Assembly (NCBI GenBank): GCA_963834015.1
Contig: CAWIAG010000004.1
Location: forward strand, 1,749,926 to 1,813,925
DNA from: an uncultured Ignavibacteriales bacterium
GTDB taxonomy: Bacteria > Bacteroidota > Ignavibacteria > Ignavibacteriales > Ignavibacteriaceae
Length of the DNA stretch: 64,000 nt
Direction: 5' to 3'
Part shown: positions 52,770-63,053 of the stretch, piece by piece
How positions within the stretch are numbered: the stretch's first letter is position 1
Layout: every line of letters begins with the position of its first letter
The notes under the pieces: model-generated
Told to the model about the DNA's origin: nothing
Database searches by the model: none
The model's input: only the letters and a program-made list of their open reading frames with translations
Translations under genes and position numbers: made by a program

Positions 52770-55700
52770 ATGATTCGATCTATAGTACTGAGTTTTTTGT
52801 TTTGCAGTTTACTTCTTGCTTCATCCGGGGTTAAAGAGAGGCGTTATGCACCCGGCGAAATTATTATTAAATATGAAAAGGTAGGGCAAAGAGCAAGGGG
52901 GTCAGAGATAATAACCCAGCATAAAAGCTTTGTTGATAATTTAGAACTAAACATGAAGGGTTTAAAAATAAAAAGTTACTCTCCTGTTTTCAAAAGTTTA
53001 ATTAGGGAAATGACTGACAAAAATCTTACCGAGCAGGAGGTAGTTGAGAATAAAGCTGTTACCAAAAAAAATAAAACATCATCATCTTTTATTAAAAAAA
53101 TAACTTTCTCAAATATCCTTTTACTCAAAATTGATTCAGTAGCAGATATCTTAGAGTTAGCTTCAACTCTAAATAATAACCGAGATTTATTGGCCTCAGA
53201 GGGAATGAGAATTGTTTACGCCGAACCGAATTATTTAAAAAAGACAAGTGTAAACCCGAATGATCCTTTGTATCCTCTGCAATGGTCCTATCGAATAACT
53301 GATGTAGCTAATGCCTGGGATACTACGGAGGGAAGTCCTAATATTAAGATTGCAATTGTTGATACAGGAGTTGATCCAACACATCCGGATTTAATTGCAA
53401 ATCTTATTCAGGGCTATAATTTTGTTAATATCGATACAGACTACTACAAACAAGATTCTAATATAACCTTACTTCCGGGAGAAATTTATACGCAACCCGG
53501 ACCTAATTGTACCGACTATAATGGTCATGGGACTCACTGTGCAGGTATTGCTGCGGCAGCCGGAAATAATGGAATCGGAATTATCGGTGTAGCTCCAAAT
53601 TGTAAGATTATGCCTGTTAGAGCTGGTTTTAGTCTTATGGTTGATGGACAGGAGGAAGGTGTTCTTGAAACTACTTCTATCGTGGAAGGAATTAATTATG
53701 CAGTGGATAATGGTGCAAATGTAATTAGTATGAGTTTTGGTGGCGATAGTTCGAACCTTGAAGAAGAAGCTATTCAGAATGCTTATTACAACAATGTAGT
53801 CTTAGTTGCTGCTGCAGGGAACAACAGTTCATCTGAAAAGTTTTATCCGGCTGGATACAGTGAAGTATTAGCAATAACATCAGTAGATTCAACCAGGTCC
53901 GCTTCTTCATTTACTGAATATGGATATTGGACGTCTGTTGCAGCACCTGGAGAAAATATAATTTCAACTGTACCGTTAACTGGAGGTATCCTTACCGATC
54001 CATCCGGTTATAAGGTATTATCCGGAACTTCAATGGCGTCTCCTTTCGTTGCCGGTGAAGTTGCATTAATTTTATCGCACAATCCTTCTTTATCCAATAA
54101 TCTAATATATCAAATAGTCAGAACTGCAGTTAGTTCGTACTATGCGAGTAATAATTATATAGGTACCGGAATCGTTGATGTAGATAAAGCTTTTATAGGA
54201 ACCGGAGCTTGTATAGCAAAAATTACTGTTCCGTATAATATAAACAATCTGTATATATCCAAGGGAAATATAAGTATTTCCGGAAGAGCATCAGGGTTAT
54301 TATTCCGTAATTATTATTTGCAATACTCAGATTATCAAAATTCAACTGCGATCTGGCAGTCCGCAGGACAAATTTATACTACTCAGGTTGATAGCGGTTA
54401 CCTTGGAACTGTTAGTATAGCACAACCGGGGGTTTATTATATAAGGCTGGTAGTTACAAGCACTAACAATATACAGTATACAGATATAATCGGACCTGTT
54501 ACAGTTGATAACAGATTGAAATCCAATTGGCCGGTTTCAACAGGATCTCCCATCGGTTCTACGCCGGTACTTTCGGATATCTATGGGGACGGGAATGTTG
54601 AGGTAATATTTACAAGTTCAAACGGTGAAATCTATGTTGTAGATCAGAATGGCAATAATAAACCTGGCTGGCCTGTAACATTACCTAATTCCAGTTCTAA
54701 ATCCCAAGTTGGTTATACAAGCCCGGCAGTTGGGGATCTGGACAATGACGGTAAAAAAGAAATAGCAGTGAGAGACGGTCAGTTTATTTATGTATATAAA
54801 AATGATGGTACCATGAGGAATGGATGGCCGGTATCTTTAGGTACAAATATATTTTCGGGAAATGCAATAGTAGGCTCACCCACTATTGCTGATATTAATA
54901 ATGATGGTTATAAAGAAATACTTGTAACATCTCTTAATGGTAAAATATTTGCATTCGATCGTAATGGTTACATTATTTCCGGCTGGCCGGTATCAGTACC
55001 GATTAATTCTGTATGGGCTACTTTGTATTCAACTCCAGTAGTATCAGATATAAAAGGTGATGGTAACGTTGAAATAATAATCCAATGCATTGATGAGTCT
55101 TCCGCTAATTCTATTGGCTACCTATATGTATTTGATAATTTTGGAAATGTTCTTCCCGGCTGGCCGCAAACAATAGGAGGGGGATCATGGACTTCCCCTA
55201 TAACTGCAGATATAAACAATGATGGGCAAAATGAAATAATTGCATCTTCATTTTTGCCGTCCGGTTCTTCATCAGGTTCAATAGGTCTTTACGTTTTTAA
55301 TCCGGCCGGCAGCTTACTAAAAGGATTCCCTGTGCAGTTGAATGATGTGTCCTTTGGATATTATAATATTAAAGCAGGGCTGTCAGCCGGAGATATAAAT
55401 AATGACGGTTATAAAGAAATTATCGTTGCAAGCAGCCAATTGAATTCACTATGGGCGGTTGACAGAAATGGTAAAGTACTCTGGAATTCACAACCAAGCG
55501 AGCCATGGGAGTATAATTTTGCGTCGGTTCCAATTATTGCGGATATCAATAATGACGGCAAACCTGAAATATTAGTTTCTAAATACAATAATACAAATCA
55601 AACCGGCAAAATTATTGTTGTTAATAACACCGGGCAAATAATGGAAAGTCTTTCTTGTGTTCTTCCGGAACAGATATGGGCTACTCCTTCTATTGGTGAT

Positions 55701-57404
55701 ATTGAAGGGAATGGCAATCTCGAATTAATTTGCGGGTCTATTCAGGGCAACGTTTTTTGTTGGGACCTGGGTGTACCATTTGATACTACCTTGATGATCT
55801 GGCCTACATATCAGCAAAACTATCAGAGAACCGGGAGTATTGATCTGCTCAAAACCATACCTGCAGTTACTCATTTAACAGAGCCGCCAAATAATGCAGT
55901 TATTCAACCCGGGGAAATTACTTTTTCCTGGAATCCTGTCCCGGGAGCTCTTAAATATAATTTCGAACTATCTGATTCAATTTCTTTTAATGATATTATT
56001 TTTCAGGATACCTCAATGTCAGCAGTATCCCTTATAGTTGATTCAGTCCAGAGCAGCAGTAAGGGATTAAAGGCAGGTCTGAAAAACACCAGGACTGTAA
56101 GTGCAATTAAAAAGTTAATCACGAATGATAAAAAAATTATAGATCCCAAAAAACATCTAACAGGATTGAATGATGGTGTAAGGTATTATTGGAGAGTAGC
56201 TTCATTAGATTTGATAGGATCAAGTCCTTTTTCGGCAATAAATTCATTTTCTACAATTTTAAATGCACCCGGAACACTTTATGCCCTGGCGCTTCCTTCA
56301 GAAAGAGTAGTATTAAACTGGTCCGGTACATCAAACAATAACACGGGATTTATAATACAAAGGAAACTTTCTACAGATACTATCTACACTGTAATTGATA
56401 CTGTTAAAACAGATACAATCAGTTTTACAGATACAACATTGACATCAATAAATACGTATAATTACAGAATAGAGGCATATAATCAAATAGAAACTTCTGC
56501 ATTCAGCAATGTAGTAACAATAGCAACCCTTCCGCCTTACCCAGCCGCACCTACATTAATAGCTCCAATAAACAATGCATCTATCCTTACAGGTAGTTTA
56601 TATTTAAGCTGGATTAGTTCTGCGAATGCAAGCAGCTACCGGTTACAGGTCTCAACAGATTCGACATTTAAAACATTCTTTTTAAATGATTCGGTTCTTA
56701 CTACCACAACATTTCAGGTAACTAATCTGAGTGACGGCTTAAGATATTACTGGAGAGTAAATTCAAAAAATGTTACCGGAATAAGCATATATTCCGGGGT
56801 GAATTCATTTTCAACAATTTTAAATGCACCTCAAAATTTAAGTGCAATTGCAATGTGGGGTTACAAAGTATCACTTACCTGGATAGGCAAAAGCAATGAT
56901 GAATCTGGTTATATAATTGAACGCAAGCTTAGCAAGGATACTTCGTACACAATTATAGACTCATTAAAACTAAAGGTTACAAGTTTTACTGATTCATCGT
57001 TAACAGCAGTAAACACATATAATTATAGGATAACTGCATATAATGCTTTGGGTACTTCAGGATTCAGTAATGTTATAACTGTAAATACAATAACCTCGGT
57101 AGAAAATAAATCCCGTCAGATACCTGTGAACTATGAATTATCCCAAAACTTCCCCAACCCGTTTAATCCAATAACAGTAATAGAATATGGACTACCGGTA
57201 CAAAGCCGGGTAAAGATTGTAGTCTATAATATATTGGGAGAAGTTGTAAAAGAACTTGTAAATTCTGTTCAGAGTGCGGGATACCATTATATGGACTTTG
57301 GAGGGAACATGAGTTCAGGCGTATACTTCTATAAGATAGATGCAAAAGCCGTTAACAACTCAAGGCAGTTCATGCAAATTAAGAAAATGATGCTTTTAAA
57401 ATAA
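52770..57404 (+). CDS. S8 subtilisin-like protease, FG-GAP/VCBS-type propeller, duplicated Fn3-like module and T9SS C-terminal sorting domain (paralog 1, 1544 aa)
   Basis: Catalytic triad contexts VDTGVD, HGTHCAG and SGTSMASP. DINNDGYKEI-type repeats. C-terminus NFPNPFNPITVIEYGLPVQSRVKIVVYNILGE...GVYFYKIDAK. Confidence 0.9.
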   Translation: MIRSIVLSFLFCSLLLASSGVKERRYAPGEIIIKYEKVGQRARGSEIITQHKSFVDNLELNMKGLKIKSYSPVFKSLIREMTDKNLTEQEVVENKAVTKKNKTSSSFIKKITFSNILLLKIDSVADILELASTLNNNRDLLASEGMRIVYAEPNYLKKTSVNPNDPLYPLQWSYRITDVANAWDTTEGSPNIKIAIVDTGVDPTHPDLIANLIQGYNFVNIDTDYYKQDSNITLLPGEIYTQPGPNCTDYNGHGTHCAGIAAAAGNNGIGIIGVAPNCKIMPVRAGFSLMVDGQEEGVLETTSIVEGINYAVDNGANVISMSFGGDSSNLEEEAIQNAYYNNVVLVAAAGNNSSSEKFYPAGYSEVLAITSVDSTRSASSFTEYGYWTSVAAPGENIISTVPLTGGILTDPSGYKVLSGTSMASPFVAGEVALILSHNPSLSNNLIYQIVRTAVSSYYASNNYIGTGIVDVDKAFIGTGACIAKITVPYNINNLYISKGNISISGRASGLLFRNYYLQYSDYQNSTAIWQSAGQIYTTQVDSGYLGTVSIAQPGVYYIRLVVTSTNNIQYTDIIGPVTVDNRLKSNWPVSTGSPIGSTPVLSDIYGDGNVEVIFTSSNGEIYVVDQNGNNKPGWPVTLPNSSSKSQVGYTSPAVGDLDNDGKKEIAVRDGQFIYVYKNDGTMRNGWPVSLGTNIFSGNAIVGSPTIADINNDGYKEILVTSLNGKIFAFDRNGYIISGWPVSVPINSVWATLYSTPVVSDIKGDGNVEIIIQCIDESSANSIGYLYVFDNFGNVLPGWPQTIGGGSWTSPITADINNDGQNEIIASSFLPSGSSSGSIGLYVFNPAGSLLKGFPVQLNDVSFGYYNIKAGLSAGDINNDGYKEIIVASSQLNSLWAVDRNGKVLWNSQPSEPWEYNFASVPIIADINNDGKPEILVSKYNNTNQTGKIIVVNNTGQIMESLSCVLPEQIWATPSIGDIEGNGNLELICGSIQGNVFCWDLGVPFDTTLMIWPTYQQNYQRTGSIDLLKTIPAVTHLTEPPNNAVIQPGEITFSWNPVPGALKYNFELSDSISFNDIIFQDTSMSAVSLIVDSVQSSSKGLKAGLKNTRTVSAIKKLITNDKKIIDPKKHLTGLNDGVRYYWRVASLDLIGSSPFSAINSFSTILNAPGTLYALALPSERVVLNWSGTSNNNTGFIIQRKLSTDTIYTVIDTVKTDTISFTDTTLTSINTYNYRIEAYNQIETSAFSNVVTIATLPPYPAAPTLIAPINNASILTGSLYLSWISSANASSYRLQVSTDSTFKTFFLNDSVLTTTTFQVTNLSDGLRYYWRVNSKNVTGISIYSGVNSFSTILNAPQNLSAIAMWGYKVSLTWIGKSNDESGYIIERKLSKDTSYTIIDSLKLKVTSFTDSSLTAVNTYNYRITAYNALGTSGFSNVITVNTITSVENKSRQIPVNYELSQNFPNPFNPITVIEYGLPVQSRVKIVVYNILGEVVKELVNSVQSAGYHYMDFGGNMSSGVYFYKIDAKAVNNSRQFMQIKKMMLLK

Positions 57405-57459
57405 CGACAAATGTCGCCTCAGAAACAGTTAAATTTAGAAAGAACAACTGAGGTGACAA

Positions 57460-58302
57460 ATGGAAATAAGGAGGACGATATTAAATAGAAGGCAAACAAA
57501 AAGTTCGGAAGGAGAGTTCATCTATGAGTTAGAGAACTCGTATGAGCTCTCTCCGAAATTAAGTGAATCGATATTAGTAACAGCAAAAGAATGTTTGCTA
57601 AGAGACCACCAATTGAAAGAAGGCCAGATAGAAGTAACGGTAATAGAAATAGAACAGAAAGCAGGACAAGTAATAGAGAAGCTGGAAAAGAAGAAAGTAA
57701 GATTGACCATAGACAATGGAATTGAAGATATAGAAGTAATAAAAGGATATGGTCTGATATCACTACGGCAAATAAAAATAGAAAGGATAACCGAAGAAGC
57801 GATAGAACAAGGAGGAGTATTAAGCCAGGAAGATTTGGGAAAATATTTAGGATGTACGGTAAGGACAATCCAACGGGATATAAAGCAGATAAAGAAGAAA
57901 GGGATAGAAGTAGTAACAAGAGGATATCTACATAATATAGGCAGAGGTCAAACACATAAGGTAAAGATAATAGGGCTGTATTTAGACGGACAAACGTACA
58001 GCGAAATAAAGTTAAGTACAAAACACAGTGTGGGAGCTATAAAAAGATATTTAGGAAGCTTCGTAAAAGTATTGATGTCACAAAGCAGAGGGATATACGG
58101 GACAAAAGATATAAGCATAGTAACAGGGATAAGCGAGGTATTAGTAAAGCAATATGCAGAGTTGATAAGGGAAAGTAAGAAGGATAAGACAAGGAGAGAG
58201 AATTTAAAGCAATTGGTAGAGAGAAGCAGCTATAGGGAAGGGATAAAAAAAACAGTAAAGAGCTATTCAGAGCCTCTGGCAGCTATGATGGGAGGCTTAT
58301 AA
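57460..58302 (+). CDS. Multi-HTH protein A (280 aa), possibly DUF1670-like
   Basis: Three HTH-like segments: GGVLSQEDLGKYLGCTVRTIQRDIKQIKKKG, GQTYSEIKLSTKHSVGAIKRYLGSFVKV and KDISIVTGISEVLVKQYAELIRE. The SD gaggtg lies 4 nt upstream. The family name comes from memory only. Confidence 0.7.
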   Translation: MEIRRTILNRRQTKSSEGEFIYELENSYELSPKLSESILVTAKECLLRDHQLKEGQIEVTVIEIEQKAGQVIEKLEKKKVRLTIDNGIEDIEVIKGYGLISLRQIKIERITEEAIEQGGVLSQEDLGKYLGCTVRTIQRDIKQIKKKGIEVVTRGYLHNIGRGQTHKVKIIGLYLDGQTYSEIKLSTKHSVGAIKRYLGSFVKVLMSQSRGIYGTKDISIVTGISEVLVKQYAELIRESKKDKTRRENLKQLVERSSYREGIKKTVKSYSEPLAAMMGGL

Positions 58303-59105
58303 TGAGTTTGAACCAGACAAGGGACAGATATGAAAGCATAAACAAAAGGAACTTTCATAATGCGATAATAAATTTATTAGAGAATGAATACAAACTGCTG
58401 GGTTCAAGAAAAGTGTTGGAGATGTTGGCCGATGATATAGGGGATCTTCATAGAGAATATTACCCTGGAAAAAATCAAGTAGGATTTGGAGAGATAGTAT
58501 TCACAACAACAAAAGACGATGGACAAAGGCAGAGCTATGGCAAGAAGACGGAAGATTATGCAACAATAACATTAGCTTTGCCATTGATAACGAAGGAAGA
58601 TGTAGAAAGAAGGATATATTTTAAGAAAGGCGACAGAAATAGTAATTATCGACATAGAGAAGCCAGAGACATAGAAACCATGGTAAGATTATTAAAGAGT
58701 GCAAAAACTCAAGGAGGACTATTAAGTGGGGCCGAGTTGAGTATGCTGATGAATCGGAGCTTAAGTACTATACGGAAATACCTGGATGCATATAGAGAGA
58801 AGACGGGAGAGATATTACCATTAAAAGGATATGTATTAGATCAAGGGAGTTTGCCTACGCACAAAGGAATAATAGTCAGTTTGTACGAGCAAGGAATTTC
58901 ACCGGCAGACATAGTACTAAAGACCGGTCACAGTCAGGATGCAGTAGACAGATATATTAAGCATTATGAACAAGTAAAGAAACTGATAAGAAAAGGATTG
59001 ACGGAAGAATCAATACAAGAAATAACAGGCAGGTCGATGAAAGTTATTAAAGAATATATTAAGTTGTACAAAGATCTTAATCCTGTAAGTGAACTGAATA
59101 AGTAA
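58302..59105 (+). CDS. Multi-HTH protein B (267 aa), paralog of protein A
   Basis: The TAATG stop/start overlap indicates translational coupling. It is colinear with A: GGLLSGAELSMLMNRSLSTIRKYLDAYREKTG, ..PTHKGIIVSLYEQGISPADIVLKTGHSQDAVDRYIKHYEQV and LTEESIQEITGRSMKVIKEYIKLY. Confidence 0.7.
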   Translation: MSLNQTRDRYESINKRNFHNAIINLLENEYKLLGSRKVLEMLADDIGDLHREYYPGKNQVGFGEIVFTTTKDDGQRQSYGKKTEDYATITLALPLITKEDVERRIYFKKGDRNSNYRHREARDIETMVRLLKSAKTQGGLLSGAELSMLMNRSLSTIRKYLDAYREKTGEILPLKGYVLDQGSLPTHKGIIVSLYEQGISPADIVLKTGHSQDAVDRYIKHYEQVKKLIRKGLTEESIQEITGRSMKVIKEYIKLYKDLNPVSELNK

Positions 59106-59624
59106 AAAAATACCAGGCGACAAATGTCGTAATAGTAAATAACCAATTATGTGAGGCCATTTTATATGTTTAAAGTTGGAGAGTTGGGGCATGCCCCGGC
59201 TTTACAACACTACAAAATCCTTAAAGGTGATCCTCACATTTAATAATTTTTATTAGCCATTCAATATTATAAGCCATTTAAATCCCAAAAGAGTTTACCC
59301 ATTAAAAAAAACTGGGGATATGACGGCGCGCAATGATTAATTTAGGGCGTTTTTTATTGACCTACTAAATAATAGTTTACTAGTTAATTTCATTCCCGGT
59401 AAATGAATAAAACATTTCTGCACAGGCATTATTACCGGATTATTTGAACCGTATCAGGGATTTTGCTGGAGAAAAATTTCATCTGAACCTATGACTTATT
59501 ACTCCGTTCATTTATCTGAACTAATATCTCCTCCGGTATACTCTCATTTTAGAGAGAATGATTCAAAAGTAGTTCGAATAATATAAGAGTTAATACGTAT
59601 TAGAATATTGTTTTAAGCGAGGTA

Positions 59625-62600
59625 ATGATGCTGCGAAAATTACTGATTAGTATAATATTTTCCGGAATAGTGCTTGTTGGGCAAACGATAAAAGATATAA
59701 AATATGTACCGGGAGAAATTATTATCAAATATGAAAAGACAGGGCAAAGCGCAAGGGGCTCAGATATAATAACCGAACATCAAAATTTCGTAGATAATTT
59801 AAAACTCAGTATGAAGGAGTTGAAAATTAATAGTTACTCACCTGTATTTAAAAGTATAGTCGAAGAAATGACCGAAAAAAATCTTACCGAAAAAGAAGTT
59901 ATTCAGCATAAAACGTTAAACAGAAAAAACATTATCACATTATCACGAATTAAAAAAACAACCTTTTCCAATATCCTGCTTCTTAAAATTGATCCGGCAG
60001 TGGATATTAAGGAAGCGGCGTTAAGTTTAATTAATAATCCCGATATGCTGGCATCACAGGGAATCAGGATAGTTTATGCCGAACCAAATTATTTAAAAAG
60101 AACAAGCATAACCCCGAATGACCCGTTATATACGCAACAATGGTCCCACCGTATAACTAATATAGAGAAGGCATGGGATACAACAGAAGGGAGCCCAAAT
60201 ATTAAGATAGCTATAATTGATACAGGGGTAGACCCGGCACATCCTGATTTAATGGCCAACTTAATTACGGGACATAATTTTGTTGACATAGATACAAACT
60301 ATTATAAATTATTTGCCACTCTGCTGCAGGGAGAAATTTATACACAGCCGGGAACTAATTGTACTGATTACAACGGCCATGGAACACATTGCGCAGGTAT
60401 TGCTGCTGCAGTGGGCAACAATGGAATCGGCGTCATCGGAGCGGCACCAAATTGTAAAATCATGCCGGTAAGAGCAGGCTTCAGCATTCTGGTTGACGAC
60501 CAGGAATACGGCGTTCTGGAAACCGCTACTGTTGTTCAGGCAATAAATTATGCAGTATATAACGGTGCAAATGTAATAAGCATGAGTTTCGGAGGGGATA
60601 GTTCAAGCCTTGAAGAGGAAACAATTCAGAATGCTTATTATAATAATGTAGTGCTTGTAGCCGCTGCCGGTAATAATGATTTTGCAGCAAAACAATATCC
60701 GGGAGGATATAATGAAGTACTTGCAATTACATCTATAGATTCGATTCAAAACTGGTCGACATTTTCTAATTACGGATTATGGACTGCAATTGCCGCGCCA
60801 GGTGAAAATATTGAATCGACAGTACCGTTAAAAGGCGGAGCTATATGCGATAGTACGGGTTACAGGGTATTATCCGGAACGTCAATGGCAACTCCGTATA
60901 TTGCGGGTGTTGCCGCATTAGTGTTATCACATGACTCTTCGATGTCCAATAATTTGGTTTATCAAACACTCCGGAGTTCTGTAAACCCGGCATACTCAAG
61001 TCCTTATTATATAGGTACAGGAATAATTGACGGATCAAAATTATTTTCCGGATCGATAGCCTGCATATCGAAAATTACTGCGCCGGATAATATTAGTAAT
61101 TTATATATAGTTAATGGAAACATAAACATTTCAGGAAGGGCTTCGGGAAAATTATTCAGTAATTATACCTTTGAATATTCTGATTATCAAAGAGTTACTC
61201 CTGATTGGCAGCCCACCGGGCAAACTTTTTCTACACCAGTAGACAGCGGTTTATTAGGGACCGTTAAAATAACTCAAAACGGGATTTATTATATAAGGCT
61301 AAAGGTTACCAGCACTAATAATCTAGTATACAGCGATATTATCGGACCTGTTACAATAGATACCCGGCTAAAAGCAAACTGGTCTGTTTCAACCGGGGCT
61401 CCAGTAAGTTCTTCACCGGTTTTATGCGATATTGACGGGGATGGAAATGTTGAGACAATATTTACCAGTTCCAACGGCGGTATATATGTATTATACCAGT
61501 ACGGCAATAATAAACCCGGCTGGCCTGTGTTTACTTCGAATATTTATTACGGCAGGTCTGTTTTGGGTAGTTGCAGCCCTACCGTAGGCGACCTGGATAA
61601 TAACGGAAAAAAAGAGATAGTAGTGAGGGACGGCAGGTACATTTACGTATATAATTCAGATGGTTCACTCAGGAGCCCGTGGCCTATAGATTTATCGGGA
61701 GATTCATTGGGTTATATTAGTGGAAATGCTTTGTACGGCTCACCTGCAATTACAGATCTTAATAATGACGGTTATAAAGAAATAATTGTAACATATCTTG
61801 ACGGCAATATATTTGCTTTCGATAGATTTGGGAAGGCTGTACACGGTTACCCGGTAAGAGTGCCGACAAAATATATGTGGGCTACTGTATATTCAACGCC
61901 TGTAGTTTCGGATTTAAATGGGGACGGCAAAATTGATGTAATAATTCAAAGCTGTGAAGCTTCGACATCCATTTCTAAAGGATATATATATGTTTTTGAC
62001 CGGTGGGGAAATGTGCTGCCCGGCTGGCCGGAACAATTTGGGCTGGGTTCGGTTAATTCCCCCATCACTGTAGATTTAAATAATGATGGAAAAAACGAAA
62101 TAATTGCTTCCTCATTTTTAAGAGCTGATTCAGCAAATAGTTTAGGTTATTTCGGTATTTATGCTTTTAATAGTGAAGGCAATGTGTTAACAGGTTTTCC
62201 CGTACTACTCACAGATTCTGTATCGGGGTATTATAATCTGAGCGGGGGGATTTCAGCAGGGGATATAAATAACGACGGTTATAAAGAAATTTTAGTTGCC
62301 GGCAGCGGGGGTAAGTATTCTTTATGGGCCATAAACAGGTACGGAAAAATACTATGGAGTTCACTTCCAAGTGAACCGGGTGAATATAATTCCGGCTCGG
62401 TTCCCGTTATTGCAGATATCAATAATAACGGAACTCCCGAGATATTAGTTTCAAAATACAATCAAAATAATCAGACCGGTAAAATATTGGTAGTTAATAA
62501 CACCGGACAGATAATGGAAAGCCTTTCCTGTGTGATCCCGGAATTTCTGTTTGCTTCACCATCCATCGGTGATATTGAAGGGAATCATAAACTGGAATTA

Positions 62601-63053
62601 ATAACCGGGTCAGCAAGCGGAAACCTCTATTGCTGGGAATTGGGTTCCCCTTATGATTCTTCAATGTTAATCTGGCCCACATATCAGCAGAATTACCAGC
62701 GGACTGGCGGTTTTGGGGTGCAGACCAATGTACCAACGGCTATAGCCGCCGGCAATAATAGTAAATTACCTGCTGAATATTCAATCCGGCAGAATTACCC
62801 TAACCCGTTTAACCCTGCGACGGTAGTAGAATATGGATTGCCGGTACAAAGCCGTGTAAAGATAGTTGTTTATAATATATTGGGTGAATTTGTAAAAGAA
62901 ATTGTTAATTCGGTGCAAGGTGCTGGTTATTATAATGTAAACTTCGAAGGAGGTAATCTTAGTTCGGGAGTTTATTTATATAAAATAGATGCAAAAGCCG
63001 TTAATGGTTCAAGAGAATTCACGCAAATAAAGAAAATGATGCTTCTAAAATAA
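59625..63053 (+). CDS. S8 subtilisin-like protease, FG-GAP/VCBS-type propeller and T9SS C-terminal domain (paralog 2, 1142 aa)
   Basis: By eye about three quarters identical to paralog 1 over the protease and propeller. Same triad contexts (IDTGVD, HGTHCAG, SGTSMATP). It lacks the Fn3-like insert of about 400 aa. C-terminus NYPNPFNPATVVEYGLPVQSRVKIVVYNILGE. Confidence 0.9.
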   Translation: MMLRKLLISIIFSGIVLVGQTIKDIKYVPGEIIIKYEKTGQSARGSDIITEHQNFVDNLKLSMKELKINSYSPVFKSIVEEMTEKNLTEKEVIQHKTLNRKNIITLSRIKKTTFSNILLLKIDPAVDIKEAALSLINNPDMLASQGIRIVYAEPNYLKRTSITPNDPLYTQQWSHRITNIEKAWDTTEGSPNIKIAIIDTGVDPAHPDLMANLITGHNFVDIDTNYYKLFATLLQGEIYTQPGTNCTDYNGHGTHCAGIAAAVGNNGIGVIGAAPNCKIMPVRAGFSILVDDQEYGVLETATVVQAINYAVYNGANVISMSFGGDSSSLEEETIQNAYYNNVVLVAAAGNNDFAAKQYPGGYNEVLAITSIDSIQNWSTFSNYGLWTAIAAPGENIESTVPLKGGAICDSTGYRVLSGTSMATPYIAGVAALVLSHDSSMSNNLVYQTLRSSVNPAYSSPYYIGTGIIDGSKLFSGSIACISKITAPDNISNLYIVNGNINISGRASGKLFSNYTFEYSDYQRVTPDWQPTGQTFSTPVDSGLLGTVKITQNGIYYIRLKVTSTNNLVYSDIIGPVTIDTRLKANWSVSTGAPVSSSPVLCDIDGDGNVETIFTSSNGGIYVLYQYGNNKPGWPVFTSNIYYGRSVLGSCSPTVGDLDNNGKKEIVVRDGRYIYVYNSDGSLRSPWPIDLSGDSLGYISGNALYGSPAITDLNNDGYKEIIVTYLDGNIFAFDRFGKAVHGYPVRVPTKYMWATVYSTPVVSDLNGDGKIDVIIQSCEASTSISKGYIYVFDRWGNVLPGWPEQFGLGSVNSPITVDLNNDGKNEIIASSFLRADSANSLGYFGIYAFNSEGNVLTGFPVLLTDSVSGYYNLSGGISAGDINNDGYKEILVAGSGGKYSLWAINRYGKILWSSLPSEPGEYNSGSVPVIADINNNGTPEILVSKYNQNNQTGKILVVNNTGQIMESLSCVIPEFLFASPSIGDIEGNHKLELITGSASGNLYCWELGSPYDSSMLIWPTYQQNYQRTGGFGVQTNVPTAIAAGNNSKLPAEYSIRQNYPNPFNPATVVEYGLPVQSRVKIVVYNILGEFVKEIVNSVQGAGYYNVNFEGGNLSSGVYLYKIDAKAVNGSREFTQIKKMMLLK

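Follow-up and report, generated by a model that had tools for sequence, protein, structure and literature searches.

A 1738-bp DUF1670 mobile element at the 3′ end of a type IX secretion cargo gene in an Ignavibacteriales genome

What are two overlapping open reading frames (ORFs), strikingly purine-rich and bracketed by two copies of the same 12-mer, doing between two paralogous protease genes? The question was raised by a locus of an uncultured Ignavibacteriales bacterium (GenBank assembly GCA_963834015.1, contig CAWIAG010000004.1), of which a 64,000-nt stretch (positions 1,749,926 to 1,813,925 of the forward strand), here called the window, was analyzed. The original prediction, made from the sequence alone, viewed the ORFs as a horizontally acquired cassette and the 12-mers as a target-site duplication or, alternatively, as end sites or operators for the encoded proteins. 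We found that window positions 57399-59136 are one copy of a 1738-bp insertion-sequence-like mobile element (the bounds can equally be read as 57401-59138, also 1738 bp). It carries two genes of the DUF1670 family, ORF A and ORF B, whose products are called A and B, and it sits at the 3′ end of a gene encoding a cargo protein of the type IX secretion system (T9SS). The features of the locus, all on the + strand, are listed below.

52770-57404, +: S8 protease paralog 1, the host target gene, ending in a T9SS C-terminal sorting domain, ...GVYFYKIDAKAVNNSRQFMQIKKMMLLK-stop
57381-57398, +: conserved target motif in the DNA, AAGAAAATGATGCTTTTA (codons K-K-M-M-L-L), abutting the insertion point on its 5′ side
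57399-57404, +: left junction hexamer AAATAA, element-borne, now giving the protease its last Lys codon and stop; crossover in or just before the first two A
57405-57416, +: left terminal palindromic 12-mer CGACAAATGTCG, half-sites CGACA/TGTCG with a variable 2-nt spacer, then CC; core of the left inverted repeat
57412-57458, +: leader hairpin, 57412-57422 (UGUCGCCUCAG) pairing with 57448-57458 (CUGAGGUGACA, which holds the ORF A Shine-Dalgarno sequence)
57460-58302, +: ORF A, DUF1670 protein of 280 aa, under purifying selection
58302-59105, +: ORF B, DUF1670 protein of 267 aa, translationally coupled to A and more conserved than A
59118-59129, +: right terminal palindromic 12-mer CGACAAATGTCG, with GG directly before it
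59130-59136, +: right terminal heptamer TAATAGT (family consensus YWATAGT), the final bases of the element, kept in 39 right ends
59137-59142, +: Lys-stop hexamer AAATAA, the protease's original, displaced to the right junction
63030-63053, +: potential target, free, AAGAAAATGATGCTTCTAAAATAA, forming the 3′ end of protease paralog 2; TGCTCG comes next, without a 12-mer

Mobility was evident from the distribution of the element. Homologous clusters at 90% identity numbered 1115 for B and 1016 for A, the best 120 clusters of each ORF being at least 78-83% identical, and very many homologues were on contigs of 1737-1750 bp with nothing but the element on them. When one genome per species was scanned, 68 loci were obtained, mostly in Ignavibacteria, Bacteroidota, and Cloacimonadota, with the A+B pair retained in nearly all of them; all hosts are metagenome-assembled genomes (MAGs). 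Near-identical copies with unrelated flanks, a hallmark of insertion sequences, were found within single genomes. For instance, the long-read MAG CAVXRO has six identical copies in six different places, and the Cloacimonadales MAG CAXXPU has at least 10, each with different flanks. The exact ORF B protein of the window occurs at the same locus in related strains and also at no fewer than two other sites. At codon positions 1, 2, and 3, the per-site differences were ~0.17, 0.09, and 0.42 for B and 0.20, 0.13, and 0.42 for A, and this concentration of divergence at third positions means that both genes are under purifying selection. Together with the retention of the pair, this points to a need for both genes. 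The search for additional copies in other genomes, which had been proposed as a check, thus yielded many, including the six in CAVXRO, and the suggestion of a mobile cassette was borne out by the identical copies in unrelated flanks and by the many 1.74-kb element-only contigs.

The ends of the element were located where identity between aligned copies starts and stops, using 43 left ends and 39 right ends. The left end consists of AAATAR, a palindromic 12-mer (CGACAWWTGTCG, TGCCATTTGGCA, TGACAAATGTCC, and others), and CC, and the right end consists of GG, a 12-mer, and YWATAGT; these are defined ends with terminal inverted repeats, as insertion sequences have. In most copies the two 12-mers are inverted relative to each other, with CGACATTTGTCG on the left and CGACAAATGTCG on the right. 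The window copy has the central dinucleotide AA at both ends, which gives it the appearance of a direct repeat. The 12-mer CGACAAATGTCG is indeed found exactly twice in the window (chance expectation, 0.14), as the original prediction had observed, but its second copy is at 59118-59129 and not 59117-59128, beginning 12 nt and not 11 nt past the ORF B stop codon. Across the copies the central dinucleotide is free to vary (AA, TT, or AT) while the half-sites stay symmetric. This is the pattern expected of a protein dimer on double-stranded DNA, and the terminal 12-mers are therefore presumed to be dimer binding sites.

The hexamers at the two junctions tell which bases belong to the element and which to the host. 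The left hexamer is uniform within a genome: it is AAATAG in 6 out of 6 CAVXRO copies and AAATAA in the window's own element at its different sites. The right hexamers (AAATAA in 14 cases, AAATAG in 9, AAGTAG in 4, AAGTAA in 4, and AAGTGA in 1) represent a Lys codon plus any of the three stops and vary independently of the left one. A constant left and a variable right hexamer mean that the left is element-borne and that the right is the target gene's original Lys-stop. The mismatches between the two further mean that the exchange took place within or just before the first two A and that any duplication is at most 2 nt; the fixed-length target-site duplication typical of insertion sequences is absent, AA being the most that is duplicated. 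Judging from these junctions, the host protein is left unchanged because the element's AAATAR restores its last codon and stop.

These results bear directly on the idea of a horizontally acquired cassette whose 12-mers were duplicated from the target upon insertion. The two identical direct 12-mers of the window copy invite it, but the 12-mers are element-borne everywhere, are often inverted or unlike each other, are conserved or covarying across more than 40 related copies, where they form the core of each terminal inverted repeat, and do not occur at the free target of paralog 2. We therefore rejected the 12-mers as a target-site duplication and give that explanation of the locus practically no credence, whereas the original prediction's own alternative, that they are end sites, is supported. 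An empty site that retains one 12-mer, also foreseen at that time, is contradicted by the free target at paralog 2, which has none.

The target was equally well defined, and four trends were apparent. First, the element follows genes of one kind: the ORF ending at the left junction has the end of a T9SS C-terminal domain (CTD), ...GxYFY...KKMxLLK-stop, at 33 of 34 loci, and 38 of 39 distinct left flanks encode the K-K-M-x-L-L-K-stop end of a T9SS-CTD gene, while the targeted genes are otherwise unrelated to one another. Second, the orientation of the element relative to the target gene is the same in all insertions. Third, the DNA directly before the hexamer is conserved, with the consensus AAgAAGATGaTtcTgaTG among 40 distinct left flanks; the 24-nt T9SS gene-end target sequence is AAGAAAATGATGCTTTTAAAATAA. 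Finally, the recognition is one-sided, as 34 distinct right flanks showed no conservation past the hexamer. Two such gene ends are present in the window, that of paralog 1, which is occupied, and that of paralog 2, which is free. The siting between two protease paralogs, to which the original prediction had drawn attention, is thus incidental, and what counts is the T9SS-CTD gene end immediately upstream.

At the protein level the targeted ends do not all match a domain model. When five 75-aa C-terminal fragments were scored against PF18962 (Por_Secre_tail; cut-off, 27 bits), two were above the cut-off (39.5 and 30.3 bits) and the C-terminal 75 aa of the window protease scored 23.8 bits, which is sub-threshold. 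The fourth matched only the related FlgD_ig and CHU_C, and the fifth, from locus L044, matched Prismane. In precomputed annotation, the upstream genes have Por_Secre_tail hits at both L069 and L070, of which only that at L070 is marked weak. Locus L044 (2065-2120; Cloacimonadales MAG) is informative: this copy lies past a prismane/hybrid-cluster-protein gene ending ...ENMMAGK-stop, where the DNA reads AACATGATGGCAGGG followed by AAATAG at the junction. The DNA motif is present and the protein domain is absent, which means that recognition acts on DNA.

The same observations weigh on whether the two genes might be a non-mobile regulator pair of T9SS cargo genes, spread by homologous recombination between CTD-coding ends. 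Such a pair would be expected directly behind T9SS cargo genes and in the same orientation, as is always the case here, and the proteins are transcription-factor-like. However, the right flanks are unrelated and so offer no second homology arm, the terminal inverted repeats are conserved, one copy lies off target behind the prismane gene, related subfamilies occur at non-T9SS sites, and the element-only contigs show the repeat behavior of mobile elements. We regard this explanation as very improbable.

Several features of the host locus and of other copies were also noted. The S8 paralogs at 52770-57404 and 59625-63053 have protease, FG-GAP, and T9SS parts in common; paralog 1 is ~400 aa longer than paralog 2, homologues of its extra region are annotated fn3, and the element is in paralog 1 only, despite near-identical target motifs in both. 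About 40 nt past the element, at 59175-59208, is a G+C-rich palindrome, GGGGCATGCCCC within GTTGGAGAGTTGGGGCATGCCCCGGCTTTACAAC, which may be the original terminator region of paralog 1, displaced by 1.7 kb. Remnants of further elements are found directly past the right junction hexamer in L008 (3838-4150) and L020 (3835-3967), namely, a solo right-end-like GGAAGATCTTCC-TAATAGT-AAATAG and a 12-mer-like TATCAAATGATRCC, and L008 also has an oppositely oriented DUF1670 C-terminal fragment; their arrangement suggests repeated use of one site followed by decay. Copies that are internally deleted or frameshifted and keep both ends (L063, L028, L038, and L010) may be non-autonomous derivatives; in L063, residues 1-53 of A are joined to residues 178-267 of B in ~1.15 kb. 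Three copies in the Cloacimonadales MAG (L048, L049, and L055) have an identical upstream gene end, ...GGKSKAQKMLLLK, and would reflect either duplication of cargo gene and element as a unit or an assembly repeat. Near-identical elements (L005, L018, L032, and proteins P0070 and P0340) are on short contigs binned as "archaeon," "Nanoarchaeota," "Arcobacter nitrofigilis," and "Syntrophaceae." Since L005 has an upstream T9SS-CTD gene end, the repeat has probably led to binning errors and hence to these labels. No plasmid relatives of the element were found.

What do the two genes encode? ORF calls confirmed that they are translationally coupled, overlapping in TAATG at 58300-58304. A tentative assignment to the DUF1670 family proved right in a hidden Markov model (HMM) search, where PF07900 (gathering score, 25 bits) matched ORF A with 157.4 bits (E = 4.6e-46; model positions 5-220 of 220) and ORF B with 169 bits (E = 1.3e-49; model positions 1-220 of 220), that is, over the whole model for both proteins. 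The weaker Pfam matches of A and B were exclusively to helix-turn-helix (HTH) families. AlphaFold models (mean predicted local distance difference test scores of 87 for B and 80.5 for A) have a common predicted build, in which a small alpha/beta domain made of N-terminal helices and a two-stranded beta-hairpin precedes three HTH units; the hairpin corresponds to the segment G.I..T...V.LT...ED.E that had been noticed earlier, and the model of A has an additional long C-terminal helix that is not in B. In direct BLASTP comparison, A and B align with 30% identity (E = 1e-12) over the C-terminal ~130 aa alone. The description of A and B as full-length paralogs therefore stands on their common HMM and common predicted architecture, but not on direct alignment.

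The composition of the cassette was another reason to suspect foreign DNA. A recount agreed that purines make up 45 of the first 60 nt of ORF A and that ATA and GTA dominate: they account for 87% of the Ile codons and 87% of the Val codons in the cassette, respectively, compared to 45% each in the neighboring proteases. The purine fraction of the coding strand is 0.70 in A and 0.65 in B, compared to ~0.54 in the 30 other long ORFs of the window, and purines occupy 78% (A) and 66% (B) of third codon positions. A complementary-strand frame that is stop-free for 167 codons is real (57518-58021) and is a by-product of this skew. However, the G+C content of the cassette (~0.36) equals that of its neighbors, and among elements it tracks that of the host over a range of 0.33-0.54. 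The third-position purine fraction is 0.62-0.75 in Ignavibacteria and Bacteroidota elements (loci L007-L061), and the skew is missing from the multi-copy Cloacimonadota elements (0.45-0.56; L027, L039, and L043) and from distant ones. The skew is thus neither required for mobility nor a sign of recent foreign origin; of the earlier label "compositionally foreign," only the purine skew, a trait of one element clade, holds.

Between the left end and ORF A, the leader folds into a hairpin, with a minimum free energy of -16.5 kcal/mol and a z score of -5.1 in the window. The same minimum-energy fold was obtained for almost all of 30 distinct variants. The inner half of the left 12-mer plus CCTCAG pairs with the Shine-Dalgarno/ATG region of ORF A, and the pairing is kept through compensatory changes between subfamilies (CCUCAG/CUGAGG, CCUCAA/UUGAGG, CCUCGU/ACGAGG, CCCCUC/GAGGGG, and GUCGUC/GACGAC). 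A host gene running in the same direction always lies directly upstream of the element, and the hairpin likely serves to hide the ORF A ribosome-binding site in read-through transcripts of that gene. The ATG region (GGTGACAAATG) also resembles the right-end half-site (GGCGACAAATG), through the same complementarity that forms the hairpin, and could be an autoregulatory operator, as an alternative or an addition to the RNA role. Searches of the element found no Rfam family and no terminator-like site, and promoter-like sites were at chance level.

Relatives of A and B extend well beyond the T9SS-targeting elements, with 773 related clusters in a 50%-identity library. Some are fusions of 530-546 aa, in which an A-like unit precedes a B-like one, just as ORF A precedes ORF B in the element, and others, of 930-952 aa, have three or four units; no extra Pfam domain was found in either kind. 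The A-B fusions support the notion that A and B act as a hetero-oligomer. A relative of B that is 29% identical (P0165) is part of an A+B pair found on 18 contigs with varied neighbors, with CGACATATGTCG-type ends and a leader hairpin, and not at T9SS genes. A 36% identical relative has AAATAA-12-mer and 12-mer-TAATAGT ends at a non-T9SS site. In a fused 932-aa form (L078), the inverted repeats differ, and an 11-bp direct repeat, TTATCTTCTAA, flanks it at an ORF end. Inverted repeats bound all of these distant loci (L080-L087, L079, and L078), whose contexts vary and whose targets are different, and the L080 group has ...AAAT at both sides. On the strength of these comparisons, the two-gene module with palindromic ends is a trait of the family, and T9SS targeting is the trait of one clade.

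Which protein, then, cuts and joins the DNA? We consider it probable that the element is autonomous and site specific and that a complex of A and B binds both the ends and the target and does the joining. The element is found in three phyla, with remoter relatives elsewhere, and always with these two genes only. It is our best guess that A and B bind these sites, act together, and cleave and join DNA themselves rather than leaving this to a host enzyme. In the mechanism that we envisage, a hetero-oligomer of A and B would bind the two end palindromes as dimers and would read the T9SS sorting-domain end on double-stranded DNA as AAR AAR ATG NTN NTN NTN AAR TAR. Joining by the complex would have a fixed orientation relative to the target and would take place within the AA of its terminal Lys codon, and the left-end AAATAR would preserve the last codon and stop of the host gene. 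Since the element supplies this hexamer, every T9SS cargo gene would be a harmless landing site, and the leader hairpin would block ORF A translation from host read-through transcripts. We put forward, more tentatively and with some doubt, a broader claim: that the DUF1670 A and B proteins are a new class of recombinase or transposase, made of tandem HTH units and a small N-terminal domain and unrelated to DDE, DEDD, HUH, serine, tyrosine, or Cas1 enzymes. This class would define a new superfamily of site-specific insertion elements in bacteria, and probably archaea, of which one clade uses T9SS-tag DNA as a multi-copy safe harbor.

Some results speak against catalysis by A and B or against movement in the proposed form. 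First, searches of both proteins against Pfam, NCBIfam, PHROGs, and PADLOC returned HTH families only and no catalytic fold or motif. Second, in alignments spanning 25 to 90% identity (residue numbering of B), the invariant Tyr218 and the near-invariant Tyr252 are structural aromatic positions of the second and third HTH recognition helices, and the N-terminal domain has no invariant polar residue. Third, an empty site of the window locus (left flank, 3 to 30 nt, and right flank), which would read ...CTTTTA AAATAA CCAATT..., was not found in metagenome contigs. Finally, neither an excised circle nor a head-to-tail tandem of the window's subfamily, with a junction reading ...TAATAGT AA ATAACGACA..., was found in the metagenome-contig scan. 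The only tandems seen in metagenome contigs were those with remnants of other subfamilies, and a look-up of the exact protein of protease paralog 1 returned no record.

The element has two DUF1670 genes only, both under purifying selection and with no recognizable catalytic domain. An RNase H-like domain with an acidic triad (DDE or DEDD, as in IS3, IS630, and IS110), a resolvase catalytic domain with a nucleophilic Ser (serine recombinases and IS607), and a phage-integrase fold with R-K-H-R-H/W-Y (tyrosine recombinases) were all lacking in A and B, and no family or fold match to an HUH motif with a catalytic Tyr (Y1 or Y2; IS200/IS605 and IS91) was found. There are no TnsA, TnsB, TnsC, or TnsD/TniQ homologues in the element, as neither of its two genes matches them. 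A Foldseek search gave nothing at an E value of <0.1, and fold matches to Topo VI-A/Spo11 and to Tn3 resolvase/Sin scored no better than HTH and had large root mean square deviations. The family and fold searches of both proteins thus agree with the earlier statement that no standard recombinase gene is present. Nor did the proteins match a known anti-phage defense system, the sole PADLOC match being a 17-bit WYL/HTH stretch. The one sequence match in the PDB, 8vd6, was uninformative, being an HTH repeat protein designed de novo. The conserved R, K, H, R, and Y residues were considered as those of a tyrosine recombinase, but they are at standard HTH and wing positions and have no fold match. 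The conserved positions of the first winged helix's wing are P173, G176, D180, and G182, and His187, Lys188, and His210, around the second HTH, are the sole polar near-invariant residues that lack a structural explanation. Assignment of A to the ends by comparing 12-mer variants with ORF A divergence gave no clear pattern by eye, and no claim is made.

Two other explanations of the chemistry have to be weighed. In the first, which is the main competitor, the DUF1670 proteins would only mark the ends and the target, and a host recombinase or topoisomerase, for example, of the Xer type, would do the catalysis. This agrees with the detection of only DNA-binding folds in A and B, with a non-HTH domain that lacks an invariant polar residue, and with precise, oriented, duplication-free junctions, as in site-specific recombination. 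However, the ends have no obvious resemblance to dif (by eye), the conservation of the target is one-sided where Xer sites are two-armed, and an exchange of at most 2 nt is a poor fit to the 6- to 8-nt overlap region of tyrosine recombinases. In addition, the element and its distant relatives occur in several phyla and at different targets, so that the helper would need to be universal. None of the one-sided target, the short exchange, and the phylum spread is decisive, and we rate a host enzyme as rather unlikely but deserving of serious consideration. In the other, the element would move as a single strand by IS200/IS605-like peel-and-paste, with the terminal palindromes as hairpins and the purine-rich strand as the one transposed. 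Duplication-free insertion that has a single orientation and lies strictly 3′ of a specific sequence, subterminal palindromes at both ends, and the extreme strand asymmetry of one clade would all fit. However, no HUH/Y1 domain was found, the stems measure just 5 bp and the loops 2 nt, the central dinucleotide is free to vary between symmetric half-sites as for a dimer on double-stranded DNA, and the purine skew is absent from the active Cloacimonadota copies. We consider single-strand transposition improbable and retain joining by the A/B complex as the favored mechanism.

The findings are of interest in several respects. DUF1670 gains a biological role, its pairs being the hallmark genes of widespread small mobile elements; our literature search found no paper mentioning DUF1670 or PF07900 and nothing relevant on an element targeted to T9SS gene ends or on a novel HTH transposase. 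Homing to the DNA of a secretion-signal domain and repairing the displaced gene end is a target choice for which we found no description, and T9SS-tag DNA offers dozens of copies per genome in T9SS-bearing phyla. As no known recombinase is carried, the multi-HTH pair would represent either a new class of DNA-breaking and -joining enzyme or a new case of hijacking a host enzyme. In practical terms, the elements interrupt metagenome assemblies at T9SS genes and end up in the wrong bins, and a compact recognizer of a long, specific DNA target may be of interest for genome engineering.

How does the element compare with known systems? It is outside the Tn7, gene-end integrase, and IS10/IS50 families, as every defining catalytic domain tested was absent. 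In Tn7, the sequence-specific protein TnsD reads a conserved 3′ coding end, and oriented insertion spares the gene product; Tn7-like elements have selectors of the TniQ/TnsD type. The DUF1670 element is similar in that a conserved gene end is read in one orientation and the gene is unharmed. It differs in having no TnsA, TnsB, TnsC, or TnsD homologues and no 5-bp duplication, in targeting a multi-copy domain-coding motif instead of a single essential gene, and in inserting at the last codon itself, replacing codon and stop. Integrases of phages and integrative and conjugative elements that act at gene 3′ ends (tRNA genes; icd for phage 21 and e14) likewise carry a replacement 3′ end and produce precise, oriented junctions. 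Unlike these, the present element has no tyrosine or serine integrase, replaces a segment of only 4 to 6 nt, is 1.7 kb long and multi-copy, and has imperfect identity between the element and target cores past AA.

Oriented insertion 3′ of a specific sequence, the lack of a duplication, and subterminal palindromes are shared with IS200/IS605 and IS91/ISCR, but those have an HUH enzyme, and the palindromes found here resemble dimer sites on double-stranded DNA. With IS607 the element shares a dinucleotide-confined crossover, no duplication, and small size. TLC phage exploits XerCD and supplies only the small HTH activator XafT, and the DUF1670 element resembles such Xer-exploiting elements in encoding small HTH proteins only and no recombinase. 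It is unlike them in having no evident dif-like site, many targets per genome instead of a single dif locus, and one-sided recognition. Finally, the leader hairpin, whose function here is read from covariation only, has a counterpart in IS10 and IS50, which belong to a different element family. In read-through transcripts of both, the ribosome-binding site of the transposase is paired with sequence from the left end, as that of ORF A would be in the DUF1670 element.

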